From: Pirellulaceae bacterium
GTDB lineage: Bacteria; Planctomycetota; Planctomycetia; Pirellulales; Pirellulaceae
Assembly (NCBI GenBank): GCA_026004775.1
Contig: BPJU01000019.1
Span: 85,471 to 117,470, forward strand
DNA length: 32,000 nucleotides
Direction of reading: 5' to 3'
The notes beneath the pieces are model-generated. The model was not told the DNA's origin, made no database searches, and saw only the letters and a program-made list of their open reading frames with translations. Shown piece after piece: positions 7,536 through 32,000 of this stretch (the stretch's first letter is position 1; each line of letters begins with the position of its first letter). A program made the position numbers and the translations under genes.

Positions 7536-7732
7536 TTGTTTCGCTTGGGAGCCCGGCCTCGTTGCACCGTTTGGCGCTGGACGCGTGTTGAGCCGCAGCC
7601 CGGTTGATTCTTGGAGCCGGCTTTTCAACGTTTGAGCTTGCTCCGCGATGGCGCAACGCAGCGGCCGATGCACCATAAGCTGTCTACCGCTCATGGTGCC
7701 GATGGCAGAAGAAGAGTTGCCACCCGCCGCGG

Positions 7733-8851
7733 TTAAGGGCCCGTACTTTCCGACCCAGACGGGTCGTCCCTGGGAAAATACCGGTCCACCACTTCGTAAA
7801 AATGGTCGGGCGATTGGACTTGGGCGACCTGCGTGCGGAACTGGCGAGCGCCGGGAACACCTTGCGCGTAGCAGCAGGCGAACTTGCGCATCAGCACCGT
7901 GCCACGTTCCATGCCGAACCGTTCGCATACCAGACGGTAGTGGTACAGCAGCCACTGCCGCTGCTCGTCGAGCGTCGGGTCGGGCGGGATCGGCTCGCCA
8001 CGCAGTGCCGCGGCTGCTTGGCGAAAGAGCCACGGCCTGCCCAGAGCAGCTCGCGCTATCATGATTCCGTCCACACCGTAACGGCGATAGGCGGCCGCCG
8101 CTTTTTCCGCGGAGTCGATGTCCCCGTTGCCGATCAGCGGTATCCGCTTCAGATGCGGTTTGATCCGCGCAATTTCTTCCCAATTGGCCTCGCCTCGGAA
8201 ATAATCCTGAGCGGTTCGGCCATGGACGGTTAGAGCGGCTGCTCCGGATTGTTCGACCACGCGGGCCACCTCGATCGCATTGATGCAATCCCGCCGGCAG
8301 CCGAGGCGGATCTTGGCCGTCACGGGTACCGGTTCGCACGCCCGCACCACACGCTCGATAATGCGGCCCATCCGCGGCGGGTCGCTCAGCAGGTACGAGC
8401 CGCTGTGCGCTTTTTCGGTAATTTCTCGCACCGGGCATCCGAAGTTAAGATCCACCACGCTCACCTGGTACTCGTGAGCCAATCGAGCACCCACCATGGC
8501 CAGCCGCTCCGGGTCGTTGTCCCACATCTGTACGGCCAGCGGCCTCGGTTCGTCCTTTACTCCCCATAACCGGTCCGGATGCTCGCACTCGGTACGGTCC
8601 TTCCAAACAAAGGATCGGGCACTCACCATTTCCGTGGCCAGCAGCCCTACCCCGCCGAATTGCCGCACCACCTGACGAAACGCGTAATTGGTAAAGCCGG
8701 CCATGGGAGCCTGAAGAATCGGCGGATCGATCTTAACCGGTCCGATCCAAAACGGCTCCGCCTTGCGCTTGGGTTCGTCGTCGTGCGCAATAACTGGGTC
8801 AAGGCTGTGCGACACCGAGCGAGTTTCGTTCAGGTCGGTGAGCGTTGCCAT
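7733..8851 (-). CDS. dus: tRNA-dihydrouridine synthase (Dus family, DusB-like)
   Basis: ILQAPMAGFTNYAFRQVV, VDLNFGCPV, LTVHGRTAQDYFRGEANWEEI, IGNGDI. I prefer the start at ATG 8851 (MATLTDL), which is preceded by AAGGAAAACGTTC. The track start 8905 adds 18 basic residues. Confidence 0.88.
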   Translation of the reverse strand: MATLTDLNETRSVSHSLDPVIAHDDEPKRKAEPFWIGPVKIDPPILQAPMAGFTNYAFRQVVRQFGGVGLLATEMVSARSFVWKDRTECEHPDRLWGVKDEPRPLAVQMWDNDPERLAMVGARLAHEYQVSVVDLNFGCPVREITEKAHSGSYLLSDPPRMGRIIERVVRACEPVPVTAKIRLGCRRDCINAIEVARVVEQSGAAALTVHGRTAQDYFRGEANWEEIARIKPHLKRIPLIGNGDIDSAEKAAAAYRRYGVDGIMIARAALGRPWLFRQAAAALRGEPIPPDPTLDEQRQWLLYHYRLVCERFGMERGTVLMRKFACCYAQGVPGARQFRTQVAQVQSPDHFYEVVDRYFPRDDPSGSESTGP

Positions 8852-9522: not shown

Positions 9523-10698
9523 ATGCCGGCGTTGGTAGCTCGACGTTACGATACGGGACGTCCGGTCCGGATCTGCTGGGACAACGGGCGGCTGGGGGTT
9601 GTCGAGCCGGCTTCGGAATCGGCGGAGTCGCTGCCGTGGGTGGCACCTGGTTGGGTGGATATCCAGATCAACGGTTACGGGGGACGTGAGTACACGAACG
9701 AGGCTCTGACGGTCGATGACGTCGTAGCGATCGACCGCCAATTAGCGACCGCGGGCGTGGTCCGCTACTGCCCGACACTGACGACCCACAGTTTTTCTAC
9801 CTTGGCCCATGCAGCCGGAATGATCGCCAAGGCGTGCGGGCAAGACGCCCTTCTTGATGCCGGTGTTCTGGGTATCCATTTGGAAGGCCCTTACATTTCT
9901 CCGCACGACGGGCCGCGGGGGGCCCACCCGAAACCTTTTTGCAAAGCTCCTGACTGGGATGAGTTCCAGCGGTTGCAGGAAGCAGCCGAAGGCCGTATCC
10001 GGTTGGTGACGTTGTCGCCGGAATATCCGAACGCTTGCCACTTCATCGAACAACTGGTGGCACAGGGTATTACCGTTGCGATCGGCCACACGGCTGCCTC
10101 GGTCGAGCAGATTCGACAGGCCGTCAGCGCAGGGGCTCGCCTCAGTACGCATCTGGGCAACGGGTGCCATCTGGAGCTACCGCGTCATCCGAACTACATC
10201 TGGGAACAACTTGCCGAGGATCGCTTGTGGGCCAGTCTGATCGTCGATGGTCATCATCTGCCTGAGACGGTGGTGCGGTGTTTCGTGCGTGCCAAGCAGC
10301 CCGAGCGGTGTATCCTTGTCAGCGACATAACCGCGTTGGGTGGCATGCCGCCCGGGCTTTACCATACATCGCTCGGCGATGTGGAAATCCTGGATGATGG
10401 ACGGATGGTGGTGGCCGGCCAGCGCCGCCTGCTCGCCGGTGCGGCTCGGCCGATCGGGGATGGGATCGTCAATGTGATGCGTTTTGCCGGTGTCGATTTG
10501 GCGACTGCCATTCGCATGGCCTGCCACCATCCGTTGCGGTTACTAGGGAGGGATGAGCCGTACTTGGAGGCAGGCGAGTGGGCCGACCTGGTATGTTTTG
10601 ACCTTCCCGCTCCGGGTGAAAAAGCTTCTCCGGTCGTCCTGGCAATGGTGCGGCACGGCGTAGTGGTTTATCAGCAACGTAACGTGGTGGTGGACTGA
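9523..10698 (+). CDS. nagA: N-acetylglucosamine-6-phosphate deacetylase-like amidohydrolase
   Basis: 391 aa. GWVDIQINGYGG, IHLEGPYISP, AIGHTAAS, STHLGNGC, DGHHL, VSDI. The Q-x-N in place of the first HxH resembles what I recall of the mononuclear E. coli-type NagA. Confidence 0.75.
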   Translation: MPALVARRYDTGRPVRICWDNGRLGVVEPASESAESLPWVAPGWVDIQINGYGGREYTNEALTVDDVVAIDRQLATAGVVRYCPTLTTHSFSTLAHAAGMIAKACGQDALLDAGVLGIHLEGPYISPHDGPRGAHPKPFCKAPDWDEFQRLQEAAEGRIRLVTLSPEYPNACHFIEQLVAQGITVAIGHTAASVEQIRQAVSAGARLSTHLGNGCHLELPRHPNYIWEQLAEDRLWASLIVDGHHLPETVVRCFVRAKQPERCILVSDITALGGMPPGLYHTSLGDVEILDDGRMVVAGQRRLLAGAARPIGDGIVNVMRFAGVDLATAIRMACHHPLRLLGRDEPYLEAGEWADLVCFDLPAPGEKASPVVLAMVRHGVVVYQQRNVVVD

Positions 10699-18193: not shown

Positions 18194-19120
18194 TCATGGC
18201 CGTGTCTCCTCGGGTTCTTCGAACAGGCGCAGATAAGGCTCGAAACGGAATCGCCGGTTACGGGCGTAGCCCGTAATCTCTCCGAGCAATCCGATGTTCA
18301 CCAGGCGGTGAAAAAGGTTGTTGGCAGCAGGCGTTGTAATGTTCAACGAGTCGCGCACGGTGGCCACCGTGACAATCGGAGAGTCGAAGAGTCTGTCCAT
18401 GACGCGATGTCCGTTCGCCGCTGCTCGCTCGAGCTTTTCGGTGACCTTGGCTCGGTACTCTTCGCGCGTGCGCAGGATCGCTGCTGTTGTCTCAGTCGCC
18501 GGCGGGCTCACTTCGGCAACAGCGCGAAGGAAAAAGTCCAGCCATCCTTCCCAATCTCCCTCGTCGCGCACAGTTTGAAGCCGGACGTAGTATTCGGCGC
18601 GATGCCGTTTGAAGTAGTACGAAAGGCAGACGACCGGCCGGGATAGAAGACGCTTTTCTACTAGCAGAACGGCAATCAGCAACCGCCCGATACTACCGCT
18701 TCCGTCCAGAAACGGGTGAATGGTTTCGAATTGTGCATGCGCCGACCCGACGCGGATGAGGACCGGTACGTCATCCTGTGCATGGAAAAAGCGATCCAGG
18801 TCTTGAAGCGATCGCGGCACCTCATGAGGCGGAGGTGGCACAAATGTAGCCTCAGCCAGTGTGCAGCCGGCGGACCGACCCAGTTCTGGGTGTTGCGCAG
18901 TTGTCCGGGTGTGAAATGTTCCCCGCGAACCCCGCGCATCAGCTCAGCATGGATTTCGCGGATCAGCCGCACCGACACCGGGAGCGTCGCGAGGCGGCCA
19001 AGACTATGATTCATCGCGCGGACATAGTTGATGACTTCATTTACATCATCGGGTGTGTCGGGATCGAAGAGCCGGGCTTCGGCAGATATTAGGTTTTGAA
19101 AGGAACTTTGCGTTAGGGTG
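18194..19120 (-). pseudogene. fic: Fic/DOC-family pseudogene (frameshifted, degenerate active-site motif, N-terminus lost)
   Basis: VINYVRAMNHSLGRL..IREIHAELMRGVRGEHFTPGQLRNTQNWVG, then a 1-nt shift near 18870-18880 into ..TLAEATFVPPPPHEV..HAQFETIHPFLDGSGSIGRLL. The motif HPFLDGSGSIGR has lost the N and first R of canonical HxFx(D/E)GNGRxxR. Confidence 0.75.
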
Positions 19121-19535
19121 TCGGTAACCAAATCGCGCTTTTGGACTTTCGCGTAGGCCCGGATCAGCTCTTGGGCGTCCGTGATGTCCGTAATCTCCAC
19201 CAGCCAGGCCAGGGGCTCGATGGCCTCCCGCTGGCAGAACCAGTACCGCAACGGCACATCAAAGCCGCGGACCTCGTGGTCCTCCTCGAGCCAGGACTCG
19301 AACAGCCTCTTCGTCACATCCGAGTCGTCCGGGCACCCCTCGTCCCGCCACTGATCCACGGCCTCCCGGATCTTGGGGACCAGAAGCAGCTTGCTCGGCC
19401 GCCGCCCCTCGGCTACCTGCCAACCCGTTGGGCTACTGTCGTCCTGGACGAGGTGCTGAGTCGGTTTCTCCCAGGGCCTGCGTCTCGGGGACTTTGGGGA
19501 GGTCCTTGTCGTAGTGGATGATCGCCTTCTGCCAT
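19121..19535 (-). pseudogene. N-terminal remnant of a type III-like restriction helicase (Res) gene, multiply frameshifted and fused to the fic remnant
   Basis: KLLLVPKIREAVDQWRDEGCPDDSDVTKRLFESWL..LRYWFCQREAIEPLAWLVEI matches my recollection of the N-terminal region of type III Res-like DEAD/DEAH proteins. An ATG at 19535 lies 2 nt after the GATase stop, but reaching this segment needs at least two frame changes (AIIHYDKDLPKVPETQALGE is in a third frame). No helicase motifs follow. Confidence 0.5.
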
Positions 19536-19537
19536 CG

Positions 19538-20323
19538 CTAATCCATCTCCACACACTCGGTTTCCAGGTCACTTGAAACCACCAGGAGGTGTCTCAGCGG
19601 AATTTCCACCCATTCCTCCTGGGTCAACTTTTCTGAACAAACTAGAATAGCCCTCTCGTTATTGAGAGATTTGCTCTCCAGCAGGGCTCTGACCTCCTTT
19701 GACTCGAACCTGATCGGCCTCGGCTCACGCGGATCGCGATTCAGCCAGTAGAGACTGTAGTAGTCGTAATTTCGTGACGCTTCGCGGTATCCATAAAGTC
19801 TTTCTCCATTGCTCAATATGAAGTTGAGGCCTGAATGTTGGAGATTCCGAACCTCTCTCAGCGCTACCTTGATGCCCTTCACTGCGTCTCCCTCGCGTTC
19901 GATGTTCTGCAGGATCCAGTGGAAATACACCTCCGAGTCTGTTTTACCGCGAATGGCAGCATGATGCTCTTCGGATAGGAGCCCCAGGAGGTCTTCCCTG
20001 TTCACACTGCCGTTGTGCGCGAAGAGCCACCTATCCCATTGGAACGGGTGACAGTTCTCCATGGATTTGGCCCCGGTCGTGCCCTTGCGGACGTGAGCCA
20101 CGAAGATCAGTGACCTGGCCTCAGCCGCCCTCCGAACAAACTCTTTACTTTTTCCGGCCTTTTGGGGCTCTTTCACTACCACAGGTTGGCCATCCTCATA
20201 CCACCCAAGGCCCCATCCGTCTGGGTTCCACTCGCTCATGCCCATCAACGTATGGGGCCCCTCAACCAACGAGAACCGCAAATCAACTTCTTTGTTTGCC
20301 ATGATTCCCAGGAGTCTGCACAT
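19538..20323 (-). CDS. Class II (Ntn-type) glutamine amidotransferase, YafJ-like
   Basis: Intact 261-aa ORF starting MCRLLG (nucleophile Cys2), with DGWGLGWY, AHVRKGT and FAHNGS. It is visibly more AT-rich than the core genome. Confidence 0.75.
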   Translation of the reverse strand: MCRLLGIMANKEVDLRFSLVEGPHTLMGMSEWNPDGWGLGWYEDGQPVVVKEPQKAGKSKEFVRRAAEARSLIFVAHVRKGTTGAKSMENCHPFQWDRWLFAHNGSVNREDLLGLLSEEHHAAIRGKTDSEVYFHWILQNIEREGDAVKGIKVALREVRNLQHSGLNFILSNGERLYGYREASRNYDYYSLYWLNRDPREPRPIRFESKEVRALLESKSLNNERAILVCSEKLTQEEWVEIPLRHLLVVSSDLETECVEMD

Positions 20324-21220: not shown

Positions 21221-22129
21221 TTAGGATTCGCCTCGCGTTGCCGCCGGCGGGCTTTCTGCCCGAAGCATGATGAGGTCTTGGCCGAGACCATCGGGCAGCA
21301 CGTCAAGGCGTCCGGAGGCGGCGATCAGTTGAGCCGGAGGAATATGGCTAAGGCGAAACGGGAAAAGGCTGGGGGCGTTGAGGAGTGCGCTTAAGCGCAA
21401 ACTTCCGGTCGAGTGCGCGCGCAGGTGAGCTTCAGCCAGCCATGCCGCGAGCTTCGCATTATCTATGGCTAGCGACAGACCCGCAAAGTAGGTACCTTTA
21501 GGGACTGGTGCATCACCCGCCTTGCCGTCATCAAGAACCCCCCAGTCCACCATAGCGCGTAGAACACGCCGAACAGCATCTTTGACCGTCGGCCGTTCAC
21601 CGTATTGCTCCATGAGGCGGCGATGTACCTGCTTTGGAGTTACCGCTCCTTGAAGCCTGAGCAGCCGCCCCACATGGGCTGCTACGGACCACCAGAACGG
21701 GTAAACTGCCATCGTCATGCCCCAGTGGACCGCGATATGGTATTCACGAGGCAGGTATAAGAGAAGCTCGAGACCATCGTGCTGAAGGGGACGGAGTTCG
21801 CGTGGCGGCCGGACCCAGATCTTCATCAGGATGGTGATCACCTTCTCCCGATTGCCGCGAATGCGTCTTTGTGTCGCGCGCCGTGCGTCATGCGTCGATC
21901 TTGGCTCGGGACCTTCTGACGCTTGAGGCTTGACGCTCGACGCCCGGACGCCTCTATCGACCGACAGTTTGTCTTCCAGCAACTCTTGCAGGGCGTTGTA
22001 GATTGACGCCTCGTCGTTTCCGGCAAGCACCAGGTTGGCCGTTCTCTGTAGCCATTCAAGACGGACCCGCTGGCTAAAACCGATCTGGGAAAACCGTCGG
22101 TCGGTCGCGCGTCGTGTGTCGTGCGTCAT
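21221..22129 (-). CDS. brxA: BREX-associated protein in the brxA position of a type 3 BREX locus (BrxA/DUF1819-like; identity tentative)
   Basis: Its ATG overlaps the pglZ stop (ATGA at 22126-22129). The call rests on position plus loose similarity to the DUF1819 layout (HWGMTMAVYPFWWSV; GERPTVKDAVRRVLRAMVDWGVL). It contains an internal repeat of its own N-terminal 12 aa. Confidence 0.45.
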   Translation of the reverse strand: MTHDTRRATDRRFSQIGFSQRVRLEWLQRTANLVLAGNDEASIYNALQELLEDKLSVDRGVRASSVKPQASEGPEPRSTHDARRATQRRIRGNREKVITILMKIWVRPPRELRPLQHDGLELLLYLPREYHIAVHWGMTMAVYPFWWSVAAHVGRLLRLQGAVTPKQVHRRLMEQYGERPTVKDAVRRVLRAMVDWGVLDDGKAGDAPVPKGTYFAGLSLAIDNAKLAAWLAEAHLRAHSTGSLRLSALLNAPSLFPFRLSHIPPAQLIAASGRLDVLPDGLGQDLIMLRAESPPAATRGES

Positions 22130-24243
22130 GACGGGTCTCCTCCGGATGAATTGCGACGCGAGACGTTGGACGCCGGACGCGGTGACGCTCTTTCGATCTG
22201 GACAAGAGGCACGATCAGCTCCTCGACACTAATTCCACCATGACCGACGAGGGTTTTACCCTTCCGCACGAAAGCAGCCCGGTTCGGAGCGATGAGGACG
22301 AGGTAGTCGTCTGGGAGACCCACCGAGGGCCACTCCAAGGACTGCGGGAATCGCGCCTTGATTTTAGCCCTGAGCCTGGGATCGGAGTAAACACGCACGC
22401 GCTCGCCGCGCAGGTCCGCAATTGCCCCTTCGGCAGGCCGCCCTGCCCCTGTCGCCTCGATGTTGCCGTGGTCCGAGGCAAGGTAAACCTCGAAACCGCG
22501 GTTGTGGAGCAGGCGGATGAGGTCCCGCATGAATCCCTGACGGGCCCATTGCCGCACCTGGTTATGCATCCCCGCCGAACCCAACTCCATGCCGTGCATG
22601 ATCCGGTCGACCTTGTCGATGACCAATCCGACGACACGTAGCTTGGGCCGGGAGAGTAACTCGGAGACCTCGTCCATGTCCCCATCGCCCAGCCCCTTGC
22701 CGTAAGCCACCTCATGCAGCGTCAGTCCCTGATCGACCCAGAACTGCGTCCAAAGGGCCGGCTCCTTGTCAGTGGTATGGATACTCGCCGGGAAGTAGAT
22801 CGGCGGCTTGCCGGCAAAGGCGGCCTGCCGGGAAACCGAGGTGATAGTGGGTATCCAGGCGAAGACAGCGTTCTCACGGAACAGCATGCTCGAATCTTGC
22901 TCCTTAAGTACGTCGCGCAAGGCGATCCATTGATCCAGGGCGAGGCCATCGACCATCAGGAAAGCCAGCTTTCCTGCTGGCGGCCGCGATGAGGACTGAG
23001 TGCCGAGCAACGAGTGGGCAAAAAATCGCGGGAGGTGGTGGAGCATAACCGGATTGGTGGCCGGTAAATTGATGAGGCTTGCATAGTGTTGAAGCACCCA
23101 TTCCTGGAAGCGCGAATCTACCAAGCAGGTGATACCCTCAATGCGCTGTCTGTATCCTTCTCCCTCTCCACTCAGCACCCAGTCCTCAGTACTCAGCACT
23201 TTCAGTTGTGCCCAACGGTAGGCGAAATGGAGCCACTCGCCATGACGCGCCCCTACCGTAGGGATCGTCTTCTCGATGGAATCCAGCAGCCCCTCCATGC
23301 GGCGGCGGCGGTCCTCCGTGGCGGAGACTTGGATGCCGTAAGCCACCCAGGTCTTGGCGAGCGCTTGCGATTGCTCGTGAGGAACCGGCTGGAGCAGGCC
23401 TTCGAGGAAAAGGTTGTCGATGTAAACGCGGACATCGGGGTGGTCAAACGGTAGGTGCGGGGTGCGTAGTGCGTGGTGCGTTTCGGCCTCGCGCATCTCG
23501 CACTTCGCACCGAGCACCTCGGCTGCGAAGCGGTCGAGGAACACCGGCCAGCGCTCCTGCAGGAACGCAAAGAATGCTTCCGCGTCCGGAATGATGGCTT
23601 CCAGAGGCCAATCCTCGAACAGGCCGTTTTGACGAAGCACCTGGATTAAGCGCTCATCGAGCATGTCCGGGATTCGTTGTCCGCTGTAATGGCGGCGCAG
23701 CAAGACCCGCAGCAGGTCCGATGGCTGCTTGATGAGTTCCGGTGCGATCTCGAACACATGACGGAGGACGAAATCCTTCGTAGCGTTGTCGCCGAGCTGC
23801 CCCGGCGCGTGCTTCGCCTGCGCATCGAACAAGGCGTCGAGACAGGAGCGGTCGAGTGCCGCTACCACGGGATAACTGAGGTTCGGGAAGAGATCGCCCA
23901 GGTTGAACGAGAGCTTGCGGCCAGCCTGCAAGAGGTCGTAGGGCAAGGCATCGAGATCGCTCGAAGGCGATCTCAGCACCACTACCAGGTCGGTTTCCTC
24001 GCCACGGTCCCAGCGGGAGCGGAACTTGGATTCGTAGGCATAGCGAAAGGCGACATGATCCTCGAACGGGATCAGCTCAAAACCCCGTTCCCGGATCCCT
24101 TCCAGAACACCTTCTTCAAGCAGCAGGCCATCCGGATCCGCGGCCAGGGTAAGCCGGGCGACACCCGCTGTGAACTCCTTCAGTATCTCCGCCCGCCAGG
24201 AATTGAACCACGGATCAACACGGATCGACTCGGATGAATTCAT
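22126..24243 (-). CDS. pglZ: BREX alkaline-phosphatase-superfamily protein PglZ
   Basis: FLMVDGLALDQW, IPTITSVSRQAAFAG, DKVDRIMHG, LASDHGN, GHGGISVEELIVPL. I prefer ATG 24243 (MNSSESIRVDPWF), which overlaps the GxxExxY stop as ATGA. The track start 24261 is 6 codons upstream. Confidence 0.9.
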   Translation of the reverse strand: MNSSESIRVDPWFNSWRAEILKEFTAGVARLTLAADPDGLLLEEGVLEGIRERGFELIPFEDHVAFRYAYESKFRSRWDRGEETDLVVVLRSPSSDLDALPYDLLQAGRKLSFNLGDLFPNLSYPVVAALDRSCLDALFDAQAKHAPGQLGDNATKDFVLRHVFEIAPELIKQPSDLLRVLLRRHYSGQRIPDMLDERLIQVLRQNGLFEDWPLEAIIPDAEAFFAFLQERWPVFLDRFAAEVLGAKCEMREAETHHALRTPHLPFDHPDVRVYIDNLFLEGLLQPVPHEQSQALAKTWVAYGIQVSATEDRRRRMEGLLDSIEKTIPTVGARHGEWLHFAYRWAQLKVLSTEDWVLSGEGEGYRQRIEGITCLVDSRFQEWVLQHYASLINLPATNPVMLHHLPRFFAHSLLGTQSSSRPPAGKLAFLMVDGLALDQWIALRDVLKEQDSSMLFRENAVFAWIPTITSVSRQAAFAGKPPIYFPASIHTTDKEPALWTQFWVDQGLTLHEVAYGKGLGDGDMDEVSELLSRPKLRVVGLVIDKVDRIMHGMELGSAGMHNQVRQWARQGFMRDLIRLLHNRGFEVYLASDHGNIEATGAGRPAEGAIADLRGERVRVYSDPRLRAKIKARFPQSLEWPSVGLPDDYLVLIAPNRAAFVRKGKTLVGHGGISVEELIVPLVQIERASPRPASNVSRRNSSGGDPS
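23171..23198. repeat. 4 x 7-nt heptamer block (CTCAGCA CCCAGTC CTCAGTA CTCAGCA) inside pglZ
   Basis: Read directly. It encodes part of KVLSTEDWVLSGE. Confidence 0.7.
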
Positions 24244-24632
24244 AAGACAACCCTTTTCCATTCGAGTCGTGACCGGCGAAAGTTCAAGATTAGGCCCAGG
24301 GTTAGTCCTGCGATCTTGAGGTAGTTGAGCATCTGGCCGATCTCATGGTCTGTGATTCTCTCGATCACCTTCGTATCGACGACGATCTTGTCGAAGACAA
24401 TCAGGTCGGGAACATACTCCCCGACCTTCACACCTTTGTAGACGACATCGAAGCGAGGTTGCTGCCGGTAGGCAATTCCCTGTCGTTGGAATTCGACAAC
24501 TAAGGCATTCTCATACGGTTTTTCCAGCAACCCATGCCCAAGTGTATTCAAGACTTCCATTGCACAGCCGATGATACGTCGTGTTTCATCTTCATAAATC
24601 AATCTGTGTCTATCCGTGTTCATCCGGGGTTC
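24205..24632. mobile_element. 428-bp inverted-repeat-bounded unit carrying the GxxExxY gene
   Basis: Left end, plus strand 24205-24240: GAACCACGGATCAACACGGATCGACTCGGATGAATT. Right end, minus strand of 24601-24632: GAACCCCGGATGAACACGGATAGACACAGATT. 22 of the first 25 nt are identical. Both end types recur in the 81-bp element at 26243-26323. Confidence 0.6.
24240..24623 (-). CDS. GxxExxY-family protein (PD-(D/E)XK-like fold)
   Basis: 127 aa. IIGCAMEVLNTLGHGLLEKPYENALVVEF..VYKG..VGEYVPDLIVFDKIVVDTK..QMLNYLKIAGLTLGLILNF. ATGA overlaps occur at both ends, with the brxHII stop and the pglZ start. Confidence 0.85.
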   Translation of the reverse strand: MNTDRHRLIYEDETRRIIGCAMEVLNTLGHGLLEKPYENALVVEFQRQGIAYRQQPRFDVVYKGVKVGEYVPDLIVFDKIVVDTKVIERITDHEIGQMLNYLKIAGLTLGLILNFRRSRLEWKRVVL

Positions 24633-27600
24633 CCCTCCACACGGACAAGAAGCAGAGGCGCCATTTCCGGCAAAATCAGCGACCTGCGCTCCAGTTCCGC
24701 CCGAAATCGCTCTTCCTCTTGTTCCAAGAGACTCAGGCGATAGTTACGGACCTGGGGCAGTCCAACGCGCTCGATGGCCCTGCGTCGCGCAGCGAAGGCA
24801 TATTCGCCCTTCTCACGCTCCCGAGCAAGACGCTCCCGGTGGGCCTGCACCAGCTCGTCGTAAACCGTCTTCCCCTGTCGCTCGGCCGCGGCCCGGAGTC
24901 GCTGGAAGGCTTGATGCGACGTCTCGATGTCCAGATGCGCCAGGATCGTGGGTTCCATTACAAGCAGAAGATCCCAGATGTGCCGCGCAGTCGGCGCAAA
25001 CACCCGATCGTCGTCGGCCAAGAACAAAGGCATGATACGCCTCCGGCCGGTCTCGGGTCCCGGGTCCGGAGTCACGAGTCCGTCAGGACGACTCACGAAC
25101 TGCGACTCGTGACTCATGACCGAAATCTGCCAGAGCGACCAGAAACCCGCGATCCCTGGAGCAAGGCCAGAAAGGGTGATGACCGGGACCGGTTGTCCTG
25201 GGGCAAAGGGAGGAAGGCGCATGGCCAGCCCACGCACCCTGGGATCTTCCAGCGTCACGTGGCGGCTCAACGGCTTCTCTTCAGCCTCCTTGCTGGTGAA
25301 GACGACATTGGTCAGTCGCTCGCCATCGGGCCAGGTGAGATCCCAGGCGCCGTTCTTTCTCTCAGCCTTGCCGCCGTGAGCCTTAAGGTAGCTTACCGTC
25401 ATGCGCTCCACCCAATGCGGGAGCGGGTGGGCCAGCAGCCGCTGGGCCTCACGAGGGTCCAAGTCCTCGGTCGAGCCAAGCACGGATGCGCTCTGGCGAG
25501 ACTCCCTCGCCTGTTCCTGAATGCTTTTCACCACGTCATCGATTTTCGTCCCTACCGCTTCGGGATGGAGAATGGCTTCCACATAAAGATCATCGAAGAG
25601 CTGGCCGGCCTGGGCAGAGTCAAGCACGTCACCGGTCTTATCAATGCCGAGCTGCTCGAAGATGACCGCCAATTTCTCCTCCAGCACCTCCAGGACACGA
25701 TGCTCGACTGACTCCTCGAACACAAAGTTGATGGCACGTACGGTGTGGGTCTGGCCGATGCGGTCTACCCGCCCGATGCGTTGTTCCAGGCGCATTGGGT
25801 TCCAGGGGATGTCGTAATTGATGACCACATGGCAGAACTGCAGGTTGAGACCCTCACCACCGGCGTCCGTTGAGATGAGGATGCGGGCATCCTTGGCAAA
25901 AGCGTCCTGGACCCGCTTGCGCTCCTCCATGTCCATCGAGCCGTTGAGGCACACCACCTCGAAGCCTCGCTCGGTCAGGAACTCGTACAGCATCTGCTGG
26001 GTCGGCACGAACTCGGTGAACACCAGCACCTTGAGAGCCGGGTCGCCTTCCTCGGCCTGGAGGCGGTAGATCCAGTCCAGGAGCGCTTCGGCCTTGGCGT
26101 CCGGGCCGTGGCTTTCGCAGCGCTTCGCCGCTTCCAGGAGCAGCTTCACCTCGGCCCGTTCATTCTTTAGTCCCCCCAAGCGGGTAGTCAGCAGGGCTTC
26201 GATCTGCTCCTGCCCTTCAAGATCGGCCCATTCATCGGGAGAGAACCACGGATGAACACCGATGGACTCGGTTTCTTCGTTCAGAAGTTTCATCTGTGTG
26301 TATTCGTGTCCATCCGTGGTTCTTTCTTCGAGCGCTTCGAGGCGCCGCTCCAGGGTGGTGCGGATGGCGCGGGTGCTGGAGACCACCAGGCGCTGCATCA
26401 GGATCATGAGGAATCCGATGTAATGGCGATTTTCAGCGATGGCCTGGTTGTAGCCCTCGCGCACGTATTCGGTGACCGCCTCGTAGAGAAGCCGTTGATC
26501 CCGGTGGCGATCCTCCCAGGAGATCGGTGCAAGCTCCGTGCGCCGGGGTTTAAAAAGGGAATTGCCCTGTGCGTCGATGGCGCGGCGCTTCTCCGTGCGG
26601 ATGACGTAGGGCTGTACCCGCTCCTTCGAAATGCTCTCTTCATCGGGAAACGCTTCCGGGTCTAGCAAAGAAAGGAGGCGCCTAAAATGATCCGTCTTCC
26701 CCTGGTGCGGTGTGGCGGATAGCAACAGCAAGTAGGGCGCGGCCTCGGCCAGCCCCTGGCCGAGCTTGTAGCGGGCCACCTGGTCCGTGCTGCCACCCAA
26801 GCGATGTGCCTCATCCACGATGACCAGGTCCCAGCCGGCGGAAATCAGGTCCTCGAAGCGCTCCCAAGCCGCGCCGCCAGCATTTGATGGGGGCTTGGCG
26901 GAATCCATGGAAACAACGACCTGGTCAAAGGCTCTAAAGGGGTTTGCATCGGAGGTGCGGAGTGCTGAGTGCTGAGCTATGAGAGCTGAGTTATCGCCTT
27001 GCCGCTCAGTCCTCAGTCCTCGTTCCTCATTCCTGTGGATTGCCGAGATGCGTTTGAAGGTTTTGTAGTCCTCCGACATGATCGGATGAAACTGCTCATG
27101 GAAGTGCATCGCCATCTCGGCAATCCACTGAGTCACCAGGCCTTTCGGGGCGATGACCAGCGTCCGCTTCACCAGGCCCCGGAGCTTGAGCTCCCGCATG
27201 ATGAGACCTGCCTCGATGGTCTTGCCGAGCCCCACCTCGTCCGCCAAGAGATAGCGCACGCGGTCACCGGAGACGACCCTCGAGAGCGCTCGAATCTGAT
27301 GCGGCAGCGGGATGACGGACGATTCGATGGGCGCAAGCAGGACGTCCTGAGTCAGCGCATCGGCGACCCGCGCCACCGCGGCGAGATAAGCGATCCCGTC
27401 CACGGTGCCGACACTTGCCTCCTGCACGGGCCGGAGGCGCGTGGCGGGCAACCGCACGACGGTATCCTTGCCCGGCAGCCAGACACGGCAAACGGTCTCG
27501 CCCCAGAGCGTCTGGGTCTCGATGACCCGGCAGAGCTCCCCGTGCTCGGGGCTGTAGTACCACTCGCCTACCACCAGATTAGCAATTTCATCCTTTCTGT

Positions 27601-27640
27601 ACGATCGCCTTGATGGCGCTGAACCATTCACGAATCTCAT
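24620..27640 (-). CDS. brxHII: BREX type 3 SNF2-family helicase BrxHII
   Basis: 1006 aa. LADEVGLGKTIEAG (motif I), VIVDEAHRL (motif II), LLLSATPHQGK, and a C-terminal helicase lobe (LVFTEF, STDAGGEGLNLQ, YDIPWNP, QRIGRVDRIGQ). The track ATG 27640 overlaps the upstream gene by 53 nt; CTG 27577 or GTG 27574 are alternative starts. Confidence 0.88.
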   Translation of the reverse strand: MRFVNGSAPSRRSYRKDEIANLVVGEWYYSPEHGELCRVIETQTLWGETVCRVWLPGKDTVVRLPATRLRPVQEASVGTVDGIAYLAAVARVADALTQDVLLAPIESSVIPLPHQIRALSRVVSGDRVRYLLADEVGLGKTIEAGLIMRELKLRGLVKRTLVIAPKGLVTQWIAEMAMHFHEQFHPIMSEDYKTFKRISAIHRNEERGLRTERQGDNSALIAQHSALRTSDANPFRAFDQVVVSMDSAKPPSNAGGAAWERFEDLISAGWDLVIVDEAHRLGGSTDQVARYKLGQGLAEAAPYLLLLSATPHQGKTDHFRRLLSLLDPEAFPDEESISKERVQPYVIRTEKRRAIDAQGNSLFKPRRTELAPISWEDRHRDQRLLYEAVTEYVREGYNQAIAENRHYIGFLMILMQRLVVSSTRAIRTTLERRLEALEERTTDGHEYTQMKLLNEETESIGVHPWFSPDEWADLEGQEQIEALLTTRLGGLKNERAEVKLLLEAAKRCESHGPDAKAEALLDWIYRLQAEEGDPALKVLVFTEFVPTQQMLYEFLTERGFEVVCLNGSMDMEERKRVQDAFAKDARILISTDAGGEGLNLQFCHVVINYDIPWNPMRLEQRIGRVDRIGQTHTVRAINFVFEESVEHRVLEVLEEKLAVIFEQLGIDKTGDVLDSAQAGQLFDDLYVEAILHPEAVGTKIDDVVKSIQEQARESRQSASVLGSTEDLDPREAQRLLAHPLPHWVERMTVSYLKAHGGKAERKNGAWDLTWPDGERLTNVVFTSKEAEEKPLSRHVTLEDPRVRGLAMRLPPFAPGQPVPVITLSGLAPGIAGFWSLWQISVMSHESQFVSRPDGLVTPDPGPETGRRRIMPLFLADDDRVFAPTARHIWDLLLVMEPTILAHLDIETSHQAFQRLRAAAERQGKTVYDELVQAHRERLAREREKGEYAFAARRRAIERVGLPQVRNYRLSLLEQEEERFRAELERRSLILPEMAPLLLVRVEGNPG
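26243..26323. mobile_element. 81-bp cargo-less palindromic derivative (MITE-like) of the GxxExxY unit, in frame within brxHII
   Basis: 13-bp perfect termini AGAACCACGGATG (26242-26254) and CATCCGTGGTTCT (26311-26323). The left half matches the 24205 end at 27/30 and the right half matches the 24632 end at 27/31. It is translated as RTTDGHEYTQMKLLNEETESIGVHPWF. Confidence 0.65.
26963..27032. repeat. Inverted pair of 4 x 7-nt heptamer blocks inside brxHII
   Basis: TGCTGAG TGCTGAG CTATGAG AGCTGAG (26963-26990), a 14-nt spacer, then CTCAGTC CTCAGTC CTCGTTC CTCATTC (27005-27032). It encodes HRNEERGLRTERQGDNSALIAQHSALRT. Confidence 0.75.
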
Positions 27641-29450
27641 CTAAAGCGCCACGTTCCCGGAGCCGATCCAACGTCATTGCGGGTGCTACCTCGTTGTTTA
27701 GTCGCTGCTTTGCACGCCCCTCCTTCTTTTTCCGTTTCTCGTCGCCCAACTGCTCCCATGGCGCCGACCCTTCCTCGCGCTCATGGATAGCTCTCGCCAC
27801 CGCCTCAGGGACGTCATTCTCGTCTGATACCTTTACTTCCACACCGAGCACCTCATTGATTGCATCGGGATGCAGATAATTCTCGGCTTCGCGCTTCCTT
27901 GTTAAGAACGCCTTCGACCCATCACCGCGTTTGTTCACCTCATTCACATGACTCTGATACTTTGGAGGGGAATCGGTATCGCGGTCATATATGTGAATCT
28001 CCGGGCGATTCAAGGGCCTGAGGTACTGGCTGTTCACCCAGTCCCGCAATGTGCTCCCGCCGAGCGGCAAGAACACGACTTCTGGTGTATCATCTGGCTC
28101 AAAACCAACATCGTCCCCTGCGGCCAGTAAGACCATCGCCATGCTCTTCAAAAACGCCACATCATTGGGACCCTCGACGCACACGAACACACGCACTCGG
28201 TTATCCGGAATCACACCAAGATCATCGGCTATCCGCTTGAGCACTTCATCGGTGCCCTCCTCTACCACCCGCGTGTTATCGTGCGCACACCGGACATACC
28301 GCAGGGCATCCACAGGTATCATCTCGGCCAGACCGGGAACGTGCGTCGTGATCACAACCTGACATCCGTCGGCCGAAGCAAGGTCTTTGAGCGCTTCAAT
28401 CACCATGCGTTGGTTGGATGGGTGTTGTGATGTTTCCGGTTCTTCAATCGCATAGATGATGTTCGATCTGTTCTCCTCCGTGCGTCGGCGCTCCGCTTCG
28501 GCGCGGAAGAACCCAAGAAGGATTAGCCGGCGAACGCCACTTCCCCGCTTATTGACAGGAATCTGATCGTCTGTCGTAAGCGCCAGTTTGAATAAAGAGT
28601 CCCATTTAGGATCAGAGCGGAATGTTGGACTTAGTTCCTTTGATAAGTTTGGGTCTAAGTCTTTGAGTTTTTCCAACGTCCGTCTAGCAACATCCAAAGC
28701 AGCATCCCGAATCCTATTTTGAATATTCTGCAACTCGTTTGCCAGCTCAGAAATCGCTTGTCGGATGGCAAGCTTCATGGGATCTTGGACTTCGCTGTCC
28801 TCGTCCGTGCTTGGACGGTCTGCGCGGAAGAGAGCAAAAATCGGTAAGTAGTGTTGGATCTGGTCCCAGATTTTTTTAGCGTCCTCCTTATTCAGTTCAA
28901 TTTCTGTCAGCGACAGTTGCAGATTCTCACAGGAATCCCAGAGCGCCTTGCGAATGGACGGGTTGCTCCTCAGATCGACGCCGTCAGTGTCAACACTCTT
29001 TTCCTGAAGTCGCTTCTTGAGGTCCGAATTCTTGAGCTGGAGTAGATCTGCATAGCCATCAGCGGTTGGATGTTTTGCGAACGCCAGAACACGTGGCTTA
29101 GGTGACTTCACGGAACAATCGAAGACCTTGTGTATCTCCAGATCACCATCTTCGTTTAAGAGGTACTCTTCCCTCAGATTCGTTGTTGAAGTAGCATCCA
29201 ACGTAAGGGAATCGGGCAACTCATCAAAGACGCAGCCAATGCGAACTTCCTTGTCCTCTGCGTAGACGCACAGGTCCGATGTATCGAACTTTACGAGCGG
29301 AGAATCAAAGAAGATGCCCAGTGCATCGAGTATCGTAGATTTACCGATGTCGTTTCGCCCTATGAGAGCTGTTAGGTCTGGATGAACCGGAATCCGGACT
29401 TCGCCCCGGTAGCCTCTGAAATTCCGTAATACCAATGTTTTGAGACGCAT
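27588..29450 (-). CDS. OLD-family ATP-dependent nuclease-like protein (ABC-type ATPase plus C-terminal TOPRIM-like domain)
   Basis: 620 aa. Walker A GRNDIGKST; NKRGSGVRRLILL; Walker B-like IIYAIEEPETSQHP. The C-terminal part has VFVCVEGPNDVAFL, LPLGGS, IYDRDTD and KREAENYL (TOPRIM-like Glu and DxD). GGAGGAGGGATAAGGTC precedes the ATG. It is more AT-rich than its neighbours. Confidence 0.75.
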   Translation of the reverse strand: MRLKTLVLRNFRGYRGEVRIPVHPDLTALIGRNDIGKSTILDALGIFFDSPLVKFDTSDLCVYAEDKEVRIGCVFDELPDSLTLDATSTTNLREEYLLNEDGDLEIHKVFDCSVKSPKPRVLAFAKHPTADGYADLLQLKNSDLKKRLQEKSVDTDGVDLRSNPSIRKALWDSCENLQLSLTEIELNKEDAKKIWDQIQHYLPIFALFRADRPSTDEDSEVQDPMKLAIRQAISELANELQNIQNRIRDAALDVARRTLEKLKDLDPNLSKELSPTFRSDPKWDSLFKLALTTDDQIPVNKRGSGVRRLILLGFFRAEAERRRTEENRSNIIYAIEEPETSQHPSNQRMVIEALKDLASADGCQVVITTHVPGLAEMIPVDALRYVRCAHDNTRVVEEGTDEVLKRIADDLGVIPDNRVRVFVCVEGPNDVAFLKSMAMVLLAAGDDVGFEPDDTPEVVFLPLGGSTLRDWVNSQYLRPLNRPEIHIYDRDTDSPPKYQSHVNEVNKRGDGSKAFLTRKREAENYLHPDAINEVLGVEVKVSDENDVPEAVARAIHEREEGSAPWEQLGDEKRKKKEGRAKQRLNNEVAPAMTLDRLRERGALDEIREWFSAIKAIVQKG

Positions 29451-29454
29451 GACC

Positions 29455-29645
29455 TTATCCCTCCTCCCCAGAACGGGTGAGCGCCTGGTCGTACCACATC
29501 AGGAGCTTGGGGTCCTCCTGGAGGACGTTCTCGGGGAGCTTGCGCGCCACGGCGATGATGGTCGCGTAGTCCCGCTCCTGCCATGCCTTCTTGAAGCCGG
29601 CGCGGACGGCCTCGAGGCGGAACACCTTCAGGCGCCTCTGCGTTG
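29455..29645 (-). pseudogene. Detached C-terminal ~60 codons of pglXI, in another reading frame
   Basis: Only the last part of track ORF 29455..30039 looks protein-like: RRLKVFRLEAVRAGFKKAWQERDYATIIAVARKLPENVLQEDPKLLMWYDQALTRSGEEG. It follows directly after the pglXI frame ends at EFEEYRAVQRRGA*. A single restored nucleotide near 29640-29660 would join the two. Confidence 0.6.
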
Positions 29646-32000
29646 GACTGCGCGGTACTCCTCGAACTCGCGCAGCAGGGCCCGCTCGCGGAGCTTCTCC
29701 AGGTCGCCGGCCTTGTTCGGGTCCGGGACGTACCAGCGGTCTTTTGCGCGAGCGATGAGGACTGAGGACTGAGTGCTGAGTCGGCCGTTCCCCTCCGCCG
29801 CACGGCCGGAAGCCAGCTCTTCCTGGATGATTTTGCGGAGGTCGGCGCTTTGCTTCATCCAGGAGACAAGTTGGGCTGGAATCGGGCCCTTGCCGTCGTA
29901 GCGGAGGAAGTTCTGCTCCAAAAGTTCCATGAGCTCGAGCGGCTTTTCGTGCTTCTGCCAGCCGCCGATCTCCTTGAGAAACTGCGGATGAAGCTCCTGG
30001 AAGGTCTGGGGCTTTCGGGTGAGCTGCTGCTTGAGCCACTGGATGGCGGAAGATTCATCGGTGACCCAGATCTCCAACTGTAGGACTTCCTTGCTTGTCA
30101 TGCGTTTCTTGTCGTATTCCGCCACCTGCTCGGGCAGGAAGTACATCCCGTCGCGCTCCGGGAAGCGCTGGGCAAGCCCGGCGTAGAACTCCGCCGCGGA
30201 GAGCGGCACCGTCACGCCACGCTGGACATGGAAAGCCACCATGCGGTCGAAGAGCAGGTAGTTCTGTCGCTCCGCGATGACCTCCGCCTTGCCGTCCTTG
30301 GAGACGAACACCGGCAGTTGCTTCAGGTGCGTGCGAACGAAGTCCCAGACGCCTTCCTCGGTGCCAGCGGTCAGCTTGAAGCGTTCCTCAAGACCGCTAT
30401 TGGGTTTGTAGGCGGAGATGACCAGGTCTTGTTTGACCGCCGTGCTCGTCACCTGACGGTAGGATCCCTGTCGCTTGTCAAGAGTGCGCACATCTGCCAC
30501 CACGAACCCGGCAGCCAGCATCGCTTCCTGAATGGCGTTCCAGACGGCGTTGCGAGAATTATGGAATACCACAGTCATCCACCGGCCCGGTTTGAGTACC
30601 CTGAAATACTCTGCGAAACATTGCTGCATCAGGTGCTGGTACTCGTTCAAACCCTTCTTCTTGGCCTTGTCCACAATGGCTTCCGGAGTGGCGTTGGTCA
30701 CCACCCGGTGCCAGGACTCCACCAGGAAGTTCAGGTCGGCATAATAGATGTTCTCACCAAAAGGCGGGTCGGTGAAAATGTAGTCGATGGTGTTGTCGGC
30801 CAGGTCGAAGTGCCCGGCCGTCGCGGTGGTAATCGAGACTAAGTGACTCTTTGTACTCAGTTCCGCGAAGGTCTTTACAAGCCGCTTGAGTTTCCCCTCA
30901 ACAACATACCAGGGCGATACCTCTGAGATTTGCGACGGCACATAATATACAAGGGGCATAGCGCCGTTGCTTTGCGAGTAGCGGTGCGGGCCATATCTAT
31001 TCTGAATGTTCAAGCTTGTTATCGCCTGCTCAACCAAAAACAACAACATGTGCCGGATACGCTTGTCCGGCCATGCCTGGGCCTTGCGCCACAACGCCGC
31101 CAGGGCGTGGGCGGCGCGGGGGAGAAAGAAGTGATGGACGTGGGTGAATCCTTTCGGTTCGATTCGGGAACCGTGATACATCTGGGCAGTTGGAAAGCGA
31201 TTTACCGGAACATCTGCGGGAAAGGGCAGCATCGCAATTCGTTCGATAATCTCACGGTCATATTCATCAAGATGCTTTTCACATCGCTGCTTGCCTACAC
31301 TATAACTAATCAGTACAGGTACGAATTTGACGTGCTTCCAGGGTCTTCCTGAAGCGGGATCGACGCGGGATTCAAACACACGATCCAGGTTTCTTTTGTC
31401 AAGCTCTGCCCCGCAATGCGGGCAAGCGAAGGTTTCCCTCACCTTATTGGTCTCCGGGTCCAGGGCCTGCTCCAGAAACACCACCTCGCCCGCGCAGTCC
31501 GGGCAAGTGAACATCTCGCTCCAGACCGTATATTCGATACGCCCCTTGCTCTTACCGTCGGTATGCAGGGTTTCGTACATCCAGCCGATTTCCTGCTCTA
31601 CCTCGTCGAGGATCTGGCGCGCCGCGCGTGCAAATTCATCCACATCGAAGGACAGATTGTAGTTGGCAGCGATGAAGGTGGCGGCAGGCGCGAGATCGCC
31701 CAGCACCACACAGCGCGGCCCCCACTTAGGTTTATCCCGGCCTTCCTTTTCCCATAAGGCTTCGAGATTGCGCTTGTAGCTCTCCGGCGCGGAGCCGCAC
31801 CATTGTGCTGCTACGCCTGTCATACCGGAGCCGCAGAAGCCGTCCAGAACGACGTCTCCGGGCTCGGTGTAATGGAGGATGGATGGTACGATGGCCAAAT
31901 GCGGCACCTTGGTGTGATAGGAATGAGCCTTGTAGATCGGGTCCGTTTTGCCCACGCTGACATCGACCGCGAACGGCTCCTTGTTGTAAGGCACGTTCGG
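29628..32000 (-). CDS. pglXI: BREX type 3 N6/N4 DNA methyltransferase PglXI (5' end at or beyond the right edge; 3' end truncated by a frameshift)
   Basis: SYHTKVP...GDVVLDGFCGSGMTG (motif I), IDYIFTDPPFGENIYY (motif IV), and a CxxC...CxxC zinc ribbon (FTCPDCAGE...FACPHCGAEL). The track M at 31994 is a GTG and the frame stays open to 32000. Confidence 0.85.
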   Translation of the reverse strand, partial: PNVPYNKEPFAVDVSVGKTDPIYKAHSYHTKVPHLAIVPSILHYTEPGDVVLDGFCGSGMTGVAAQWCGSAPESYKRNLEALWEKEGRDKPKWGPRCVVLGDLAPAATFIAANYNLSFDVDEFARAARQILDEVEQEIGWMYETLHTDGKSKGRIEYTVWSEMFTCPDCAGEVVFLEQALDPETNKVRETFACPHCGAELDKRNLDRVFESRVDPASGRPWKHVKFVPVLISYSVGKQRCEKHLDEYDREIIERIAMLPFPADVPVNRFPTAQMYHGSRIEPKGFTHVHHFFLPRAAHALAALWRKAQAWPDKRIRHMLLFLVEQAITSLNIQNRYGPHRYSQSNGAMPLVYYVPSQISEVSPWYVVEGKLKRLVKTFAELSTKSHLVSITTATAGHFDLADNTIDYIFTDPPFGENIYYADLNFLVESWHRVVTNATPEAIVDKAKKKGLNEYQHLMQQCFAEYFRVLKPGRWMTVVFHNSRNAVWNAIQEAMLAAGFVVADVRTLDKRQGSYRQVTSTAVKQDLVISAYKPNSGLEERFKLTAGTEEGVWDFVRTHLKQLPVFVSKDGKAEVIAERQNYLLFDRMVAFHVQRGVTVPLSAAEFYAGLAQRFPERDGMYFLPEQVAEYDKKRMTSKEVLQLEIWVTDESSAIQWLKQQLTRKPQTFQELHPQFLKEIGGWQKHEKPLELMELLEQNFLRYDGKGPIPAQLVSWMKQSADLRKIIQEELASGRAAEGNGRLSTQSSVLIARAKDRWYVPDPNKAGDLEKLRERALLREFEEYRAVQRRGA
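29753..29780. repeat. 4 x 7-nt heptamer block (CGATGAG GACTGAG GACTGAG TGCTGAG) inside pglXI
   Basis: Read directly. It encodes part of GRLSTQSSVLIA. Confidence 0.7.

Follow-up and report, generated by a model that had tools for sequence, protein, structure and literature searches.

The single-gene (Class 1) OLD proteins, which include P2 Old, the Thermus scotoductus protein TsOLD (structure 6P74), the Class 1 OLD of Vibrio cholerae and YbjD of E. coli, carry an ABC ATPase at the N-terminus and, at the C-terminus, a TOPRIM domain with a Glu and a DxD motif on one polypeptide. They have been described as not adjoining other defence genes (PMC10568477). An OLD-type ABC ATPase is also coupled to a TOPRIM nuclease in GajA (Class 2) and in AriA/AriB of PARIS (Class 4). 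Defence genes embedded in BREX (bacteriophage exclusion), DISARM, restriction-modification (RM) and Hma operons were described by Payne et al. 2024 (bioRxiv 10.1101/2024.01.29.577857). ABC ATPases with TOPRIM, NERD or PIN partners predominate among the Hma-embedded genes, and HEC-04, a fused ATPase-TOPRIM protein, requires its Walker A motif and the acidic E/D/D residues of its TOPRIM domain for defence (bioRxiv 10.1101/2024.01.29.577857). A further survey (NAR 2026, PMC12839542) reports TOPRIM/OLD 'backup effectors' in BREX and BREX-related core loci of at least 1242 taxa, and argues for their functional integration; its count for type 3 BREX is 919 taxa. Here we describe a 620-amino-acid (aa) open reading frame (ORF) from a Pirellulaceae bacterium metagenome-assembled genome (MAG; assembly GCA_026004775.1, contig BPJU01000019.1, positions 85,471 to 117,470 of the forward strand). 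This whole 32,000-nt stretch is referred to as the window, and the ORF lies in it between pglXI and brxHII of a type 3 BREX (BREX-3) operon.

We consider it quite probable that the 620-aa ORF is an intact, autonomous gene for a predicted OLD-family nuclease, horizontally acquired as cargo in a variable slot downstream of pglXI, and that it is not a core BREX gene. Its architecture and its context place it nearest to the single-gene Class 1 OLD proteins. A preliminary description of this DNA knew of no described combination of BREX-3 with an OLD gene, and this did not survive a look at the literature: the two embedding papers cited above (bioRxiv 10.1101/2024.01.29.577857; PMC12839542) hold precedent. 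Both the embedding and the TOPRIM/OLD back-up effectors in BREX are already published, and the claim of novelty fails. What is modestly new is a widespread OLD family of ~620 aa whose TOPRIM domain escapes profiles, the slot-level boundaries in a type 3 BREX operon, and the stub-flanked cassettes described below.

We observed that the N-terminal domain was matched by Pfam AAA_15 and AAA_21 (Table 1), while SMC_N and other Pfam families also matched residues 1-374. When a profile of 40 family sequences was searched against the PDB, the best match was 6P74 (E 3e-19), followed by GajA (E 4e-12), PtuA and Rad50/SMC proteins; the matches of this profile to GajA and AriA were confined to the ATPase motifs. 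The elements of an OLD-family ABC ATPase (Walker A and B, Q-loop, signature and H-loop) were all found. Among 50 relatives of 35-52% identity, G36, K37, S38, Q222, G303, G305, E336, E337 and H370 were invariant and S304 nearly so, and the conservation of the motifs also showed in an alignment of 40 sequences. The motifs quoted in the preliminary description (GRNDIGKST, IEEPETSQHP, VEGPND, YDRD and EAENYL) are all present in the protein.

The C-terminal part was examined in the same way. Residues 375-620 had no profile match in Pfam (E<=10), in NCBIfam (E<=1) or in PADLOC (E<=1, four family members), and hmmsearch of the PDB with full-length and C-terminal-only profiles returned nothing meaningful for this domain. 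The only non-ATPase family that recurred among the 50 relatives was PF20469 (OLD-like_TOPRIM), seen weakly and below threshold in 14 of them (best E 0.005). The AlphaFold2 (AF2) model of the full-length protein (pLDDT 83.5) had 6P74, GajA and the retron-Eco8 OLD as its top Foldseek matches, with alignments spanning the whole chain, and in the structural alignment with the Class 1 OLD the identity was only ~16%. A model of residues 397-620 (pLDDT 92.5, pTM 0.88) showed a core of b-a-b-a-b-a-b topology and, after it, a helical bundle. Its only confident PDB fold matches were the C-terminal TOPRIM regions of the Xanthomonas/Burkholderia OLD proteins, 6NJV (E 1e-4), 6NK8 and 6NJW (prob 1.00, 214-227 aligned columns, TM 0.41-0.51), all others having a prob <0.5. 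In the viral structure library the best match was a weak one to an RloB-like TOPRIM-type protein. In the model E426 (of VEG) follows strand 1, D489-x-D491 follows strand 3 and E521/E523-N-Y follows strand 4. E426, G427, D430, G465, D489, E523, Y525 and K581 were invariant in the 50 relatives, and D491 was nearly invariant (at least 90% of the sequences); E521 also belongs to the positions that are invariant or almost so. We accept an ATPase plus TOPRIM architecture of the OLD family, as had been proposed, with the TOPRIM half assigned at the level of predicted fold and motif only. The preliminary description had looked to profile searches for a decision: AAA_15 and AAA_21 were indeed matched, but no TOPRIM profile was, an absence which it had itself named as counting against the assignment.

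Like the Class 1 OLD proteins, the protein has an inserted dimerisation-type helical region in its ATPase, it is without a dedicated UvrD-type partner, and its relatives are found as single genes standing in isolation. None of the neighbouring genes in the window is of the UvrD type, nor is there a retron or a split AriB partner. It differs from them in its length (620 against ~530-590 aa), in a C-terminal helical bundle of 100 residues, in a TOPRIM domain so divergent that neither PF20469 nor any PADLOC Old/GajA model detects it, and in that the window copy sits inside a BREX-3 operon, unlike the definition of the class. GajA is among the top full-length fold matches, and the C-terminal model, taken alone, is matched to TOPRIM regions of Class 2. 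However, there is no GajB/UvrD helicase partner, the downstream gene encoding the SNF2 protein BrxHII. We also weighed a Class 2-like pairing of the OLD protein with BrxHII and dismissed it, because brxHII belongs to the core and BREX-3 loci have it whether they carry an OLD gene or not.

The resemblance to HEC-04 lies in a fused ABC ATPase and TOPRIM encoded by a single gene nested in a methylase/helicase/ATPase defence operon, and the same second-line, co-regulation rationale may be applied to both. HEC-04 comes from Hma, however, and its residues are E319/D375/D377 in place of E426/D489/D491. Since no HEC-04 model was among the top PADLOC matches, and the C-terminal domain was matched by no PADLOC model, the two belong to different families. 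With the effectors of the NAR 2026 survey (PMC12839542) the gene shares an OLD-type ABC ATPase and TOPRIM inside a BREX core locus, flanked by core genes, and the proposed role of a suicidal back-up. Compared by text and not by locus lists, that survey deals mainly with PARIS-like two-gene modules and with OLD-ABC proteins combined with HNH, restriction endonuclease or PIN domains; it has no slot-level analysis of pglXI-brxHII, insertion boundaries or exchange mechanism.

We compared the locus with related loci (numbered here L001, L002 and so on), which delimited the insertion. The blastn homology to L011 and L013 ends at 29455 and is picked up again at 27562. In L011 (Hydrogenophilus) pglXI is directly followed by brxHII, and in L013 a different cargo, an 899-aa ABC-ATPase, occupies the slot. 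These two have the closest backbones, and both are without the OLD gene (for L013 and L011, BrxHII is 79% and 76% and PglZ 81% and 76% identical). The blastn homology to L001 is unbroken from 30787 to 27523, through the 3' third of pglXI and the whole OLD gene. The OLD protein of L001 is 83% identical, but its BrxHII is only 57%, its PglZ 53% and its BrxA 48% identical. As the OLD protein is so much more similar than the core of L001, and the closest backbones are without the gene, we conclude that the cargo moved between divergent BREX-3 backbones. OLD copies of 69-87% identity hold the same slot in BREX-3 loci with core proteins of only 48-80% identity.

The base composition was also that of a foreign gene. 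The OLD gene has a GC content of 0.521 against 0.593±0.021 over all 1863-nt windows of the 32 kb, none of which is lower, and the core genes pglXI, brxHII and pglZ have 0.58-0.62. At third codon positions (GC3) the value is 0.575 against 0.72-0.75 in these core genes. The synonymous codon usage differs from that of the core genes taken together (G = 115.7, df 41, p = 5e-9), while core genes compared with each other gave p 0.03-0.53. The AT-richness noticed by eye in the preliminary description was thus borne out by the figures, and composition and locus comparison agree on the later acquisition that it had suggested. The dN/dS of the gene is 0.14-0.16 against L001 and L003, and the gene is under purifying selection.

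An exact (100%) protein match was found in P0001, 'hypothetical protein KatS3mg110_4155, Pirellulaceae bacterium MAG'. The junction with pglXI is very tight: the TAA of the pglXI tail (29457-29455) and the ATG of the OLD gene (29450-29448) are separated by a gap of 4 nt, and the Shine-Dalgarno-like (SD-like) GGAGGAGGGA at 29467-29458 lies in the last pglXI codons, 7 nt 5' of the ATG. Both the spacing and the ribosome-binding site (RBS) had been read correctly before. The junction is near-identical in L001, L003, L018 and L091, which come from unrelated organisms. At the other end, a 53-nt overlap with brxHII had been described. It exists only with the longest brxHII ORF (ATG at 27640). In a comparison of N-termini with L011, L013, L043 and L044, the conservation of BrxHII begins at W27 (WYYSPEHGELCRV; WYYSPEHG), and the native BrxHII of L011 and L013 starts ~9 residues before this position. 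Residues 1-23 of the longest ORF ('MRFVNG...') are the 3' end of the OLD gene in an alternative frame, a reading that runs into an early stop in L001. From these comparisons the true start of brxHII is probably the GTG at 27574, 11 nt past the OLD stop. The overlap is correct for the longest ORF but probably not a real one, and we have discounted it as a sign of translational coupling because the long start is probably spurious.

PADLOC, Pfam and NCBIfam all support the ORF and the gene order first read from the letters, i.e. pglXI, the 620-aa ORF, brxHII, GxxExxY, pglZ and brxA on the minus strand between 21.2 and 32.0 kb, and the tight nesting in a BREX-3 operon stands. The four genes pglXI, brxHII, pglZ and brxA are all present and co-oriented, and BrxC is encoded upstream of pglXI in the related loci L001, L002 and L092. 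A scan of the operon found promoter-like sites to be fewer than in shuffles, and none of the internal terminators was convincing. The coordinates of the features are given in Table 1.

Table 1. Features of the BREX-3 operon and its cargo gene, in window coordinates
Feature	Coordinates	Strand	Evidence or details
Inserted cassette	27563..29454	-	blastn vs L011 (no cargo) and L013 (other cargo)
OLD-family gene (ABC ATPase + TOPRIM), complete, 620 aa	27588..29450	-	ORF; homolog lengths 616-620 aa
OLD-type ABC ATPase, residues 1-374	28329..29450	-	Pfam AAA_15 E 7.6e-82; AAA_21 1.3e-17
ATPase motifs			Walker A G31-x4-G36-K37-S38; Q222; signature G303-S304-G305; Walker B E336/E337; H-loop H370
TOPRIM-like domain + helical bundle, residues 421-620	27591..28190	-	AF2 model, Foldseek, motif positions
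Candidate catalytic residues			E426, D489-x-D491, E521/E523, K581 (C-terminal domain)
Upstream junction: SD-like GGAGGAGGGA + TAA + 4-nt spacer	29451..29467	-	Sequence
pglXI body, BREX-3 N6-adenine methyltransferase	29628..31994	-	PADLOC PglXI 1199 bits, profile positions 97-862; Pfam N6_N4_Mtase
PglXI conserved C-terminal tail, last 62 codons	29455..29643	-	PADLOC PglXI profile positions 859-918; tblastn with tail peptide
brxHII, SNF2 helicase	24620..27574 (GTG start) or ..27640 (longest ORF, ATG)	-	PADLOC PDLC02500 1540 bits; PF00176 + Helicase_C
GxxExxY / PD-(D/E)XK gene, 127 aa	24240..24623	-	PF13366 (PDDEXK_3) E 9e-37; TIGR04256 E 2e-39
pglZ	22126..24261	-	PADLOC PglZ 1065 bits; Pfam PglZ
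brxA	21221..22129	-	PADLOC BrxA E 9e-96

The body of pglXI runs past the window end (31994), and it has a premature stop at 29628. In comparison to L001 and L003, the gene is frameshifted by +2 nt near 29640 (within 29620-29660, a variable linker), which puts the 62-codon tail out of frame. This indel is either a real inactivating frameshift or an error of the MAG assembly. Elsewhere in the window, a Fic/DOC-family gene (18194-19572, minus strand) is split into the overlapping ORFs 18676..19572 and 18194..18841, of which the second contains the Fic motif region and matches positions 35-93 of the Pfam Fic profile. The split is another possible frameshift, and it bears on the question of indel errors in the assembly. 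The GxxExxY gene has a GC content of 0.48 and overlaps both of its neighbours, the brxHII stop at its start and the pglZ start at its end. It is absent from L011 and L013, where the blastn homology skips ~24161/24186-24633 and brxHII runs almost straight into pglZ; in the window the two are separated by this gene, a second small insertion.

To describe the slot downstream of pglXI we used the 80 best-scoring PglXI loci of a species-representative genome collection, which is not a random census. A downstream core gene could be identified in 63 of the 80. It abuts pglXI in 19 of these (gap <300 nt), and 0.45-10 kb of extra DNA is present in the other 44. The statement that nothing sits between pglXI and brxHII therefore holds for the textbook layout only, as in 44 of 63 loci the space is taken up by other cargo of at least 0.45 kb. 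The OLD family was present in 2 of the 80 (L018 and L044; ~3%), and not in most BREX-3 loci as a core component would be. There were 76 cargo ORFs with a length of 150 aa or more, and the Pfam families among them included AAA_21 (18), AAA_15 (14), DUF3696 (8) and OLD-like_TOPRIM (2), together with DUF4276, RNA ligase, Schlafen, kinases and RAMPs, and the PADLOC labels on cargo ORFs were AriA, HEC-01A/B, AbiLi, NsnB, Old, Ppl and PDC candidates. Real loci thus have a hotspot for cargo here, and OLD-type ABC-ATPase modules are its commonest cargo family, making up about a quarter of the cargo ORFs. We also observed a recurrent two-gene cargo (~640 aa and ~350 aa), ~3.1 kb after pglXI and between pglXI and pglZ, in L027, L028, L059 and L090. 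No full-length BrxHII was found in these four loci by tblastn, and L090 keeps an N-terminal fragment of ~40 residues.

Copies of the OLD gene in the same slot start 0-11 nt past the pglXI stop in L001/L002, L003-5, L018, L092, L093, L044 and L100. The identities to the window protein are 87% for L018, 72% for L092 and 69% for L093, and 53% both for L044 (Methanosarcina) and for L100 (gut metagenome). In a neighbour-joining tree of 11 taxa, the window copy, L001, L003, L092, L093 and L091 formed one clade and L044 branched separately, suggesting that the gene was captured more than once. The actinobacterial loci L003-5 have kept the OLD gene with brxHII reduced to a fragment. In two of these (L003:7759-15360 and L004:2017-12024, from the Actinobacteria 66_15 MAG) we observed a variant BREX-3-like locus. 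Here, pglXI and the OLD gene are followed by a 23S_rRNA_IVP four-helix protein, the brxHII fragment, an unknown 380-aa protein and a DUF87/HerA-type ATPase, and further on by a second N6_N4 methyltransferase, PglZ and BrxA, then a SIR2_2 and an FtsK/HerA-like gene. In L106 (176-4863) and L109 (734-3235) a relative of 51% identity lies directly upstream of pglXI instead of downstream; therefore a second BREX-3 slot can hold the family.

The family extends well beyond BREX. At E<=1e-10 at least 7395 cluster representatives were found among the scored candidates, nearly all of them 610-635 aa long, and the C-terminal domain occurs in this architecture in 789 clusters at 50% identity. Stand-alone copies with no BREX nearby were seen in L006-L010 (Desulfosporosinus, Paenibacillus and others), L094 (66%) and L095 (77%), and isolated single-gene relatives in L007, L009, L091, L094, L175 and L176. 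Among the metagenome loci, 74 of 80 were stand-alone, at 42-54% identity. Single-gene homologs of 38-47% identity were also found in 382 plasmid records, 247 of them near full-length and 296 conjugative, mainly from Escherichia, Salmonella and Enterobacter, where they are annotated just as 'ATP-binding protein' or 'AAA family ATPase'. Examples are L175 (NZ_CP091488.1:41684-43510) and L176 (NZ_CP014799.1:7788-9668). One homolog on an Enterobacter IncF plasmid adjoins ccdAB.

The cargo is bounded by the conserved PglXI tail, which ends in MWYDQALTRSGEEG and the stop codon, and by the BrxHII head, and extra copies of both occur. In L001 (11874-11924) and L003 (7783-7889) a stub of the brxHII head lies just past the OLD gene, with further cargo after it and, beyond that, the real or remnant brxHII. 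L019 (3092-7521) shows the tail, an 877-aa cargo, a head stub with a degraded tail stub, a 361-aa cargo and the true head. Extra pglXI-tail stubs are present at L051:6762-6902 and L089:15310-15483. In L091 an OLD gene of 79% identity lies among housekeeping genes with no BREX, and remnants of both arms still flank it, one of 88 aa from the PglXI tail, with the same junction of RBS and ATG, and one from the BrxHII head (7730-7996 and 9865-9906). Judged from the sequences, this pattern fits homologous recombination through the pglXI 3' tail and the brxHII 5' head, by which the cassette has probably been exchanged between BREX-3 loci. In such an exchange the pglXI arm would also supply the RBS. 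A wider proposal is possible but distinctly tentative: the junction downstream of pglXI may be a dedicated exchange site, with arms of ~60 pglXI codons (3' end) and ~50 brxHII codons (5' end), at which cargo is swapped, stacked or excised across phyla and into archaea, and the OLD clade of 66-89% identity may have adapted to BREX-3 as a guard that is set off by the inhibition of BREX. Recombination, hotspots and cassette exchange are not mentioned in the two embedded-defence papers (bioRxiv 10.1101/2024.01.29.577857; PMC12839542).

The following mechanism would fit what is known of the family (PMC10568477, PMC7049728, PMC6755086, PMC12392090; for HEC-04, bioRxiv 10.1101/2024.01.29.577857). The OLD gene would be co-transcribed with BREX-3 and translated from the ribosome-binding site in the last pglXI codons, and the protein would act as an independent second-line defence of a back-up, abortive type. 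Its ATPase may sense a cue from the phage, plausibly a factor by which restriction/BREX or host recombination functions are disabled, as with P2 Old, Gabija and PARIS, and would then license two-metal cleavage of nucleic acid by the TOPRIM domain. DNA nicking or exonuclease activity is the likelier outcome, as for TsOLD and the Vibrio Class 1 OLD, though AriB-like tRNA cleavage is possible. The result would be coverage of phages that escape or inhibit BREX. A co-transcribed second-line module had already been offered in the preliminary description, and it appears to be the most likely role.

The same description had offered, as its other option, a nuclease arm of a BREX variant, in which the OLD protein would cooperate with PglXI and/or BrxHII, in a Gabija-like manner, and supply a DNA cleavage step. 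The gene is indeed wired both transcriptionally and translationally between pglXI and brxHII, the whole clade of 66-89% identity is found mostly in this slot, the position just upstream of a helicase mimics the GajA-GajB order, and functional integration is argued for in PMC12839542. Nevertheless, the OLD gene was found in only 2 of 80 PglXI loci, 19 of 63 slots are empty and the rest hold unrelated cargo, and the closest backbones (L011 and L013) do without it. Relatives at 42-60%, and even at 66% and 77%, are stand-alone, on plasmids included. L003-5 retain the OLD gene though brxHII is a fragment, and BrxHII is of the SNF2 and not the UvrD type. We regard an arm of BREX as improbable, though it may hold for the BREX-resident clade. 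A fused PARIS-type AriA-AriB protein was another candidate, in which the ATPase would sense DNA mimics such as Ocr and the TOPRIM domain would cleave host tRNA, guarding BREX. The architecture is the same in outline, the top PADLOC match was labelled 'AriA' (E 1e-66), and Ocr both inhibits BREX and triggers PARIS, PARIS-like modules having been reported inside BREX loci. But the two 'AriA' models concerned, PDLC02979 and PDLC02980, have 373 and 304 positions and score near-identically to Pfam AAA_15 (374) and AAA_21 (304). Because their lengths are those of these Pfam models, they are probably generic, and the label alone is probably not PARIS-specific. There was no DUF4435, AriB or AriAB match to residues 375-620, even at E<=10 in Pfam or E<=1 in PADLOC; the AriA structure 8UX9 was matched by the family profile at only E 5e-4 over ~45 residues, against 3e-19 for TsOLD; and the fold matches of the C-terminal domain are OLD Class 2 TOPRIM regions and not AriB. 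The protein is also not split in two genes. Membership in PARIS was rejected on these grounds, the resemblance put forward earlier is not specific, and a fused PARIS-type guard has, in our estimate, a slim chance of being correct.

There is finally the view that the gene is a selfish or decaying passenger, i.e. a mobile-element or plasmid-competition gene with no phage-defence role, or one that is no longer active. Its foreign composition, the frequency of homologs on conjugative plasmids beside ccdAB and integrase genes, and the frameshift in the neighbouring pglXI would all suit such a view, but the ORF has its full length and every catalytic motif is invariant, dN/dS is ~0.15, the same defence-operon slot is reused across phyla and in an archaeon, and this slot is otherwise filled with recognised defence modules. 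We give the passenger view very little credence. Several points also weigh against an autonomous OLD-family cargo gene. Its nuclease and defence activity, its trigger and its substrate are predicted only. The C-terminal domain is not recognised by any sequence profile, and the TOPRIM call comes from a predicted structure with modest TM-scores together with motif positions. The tight coupling (4 nt after pglXI and ~11 nt before brxHII) and the mostly BREX-3-resident clade fit integration with BREX as well. With the pglXI frameshift, the host BREX may be defective, or the assembly imperfect. Both of the 80-locus samples (PglXI and metagenome) consist of best-scoring loci.

The current picture of BREX or OLD mechanisms is unchanged by these observations. 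For annotation, a family of ~620-aa proteins that is very likely an OLD-type nuclease defence gene goes unrecognised as a nuclease in Pfam, NCBIfam and PADLOC v2, although it is widespread. The window offers a clean, boundary-resolved example of the embedded back-up effectors of BREX operons, and the pglXI-brxHII junction is shown to be the slot that cargo prefers in type 3 systems, ABC-ATPase modules being the commonest cargo family. The stub-flanked cassettes hint at the route by which such cargo may be exchanged, and they could help to predict new defence genes from the DNA that lies between the two arms.

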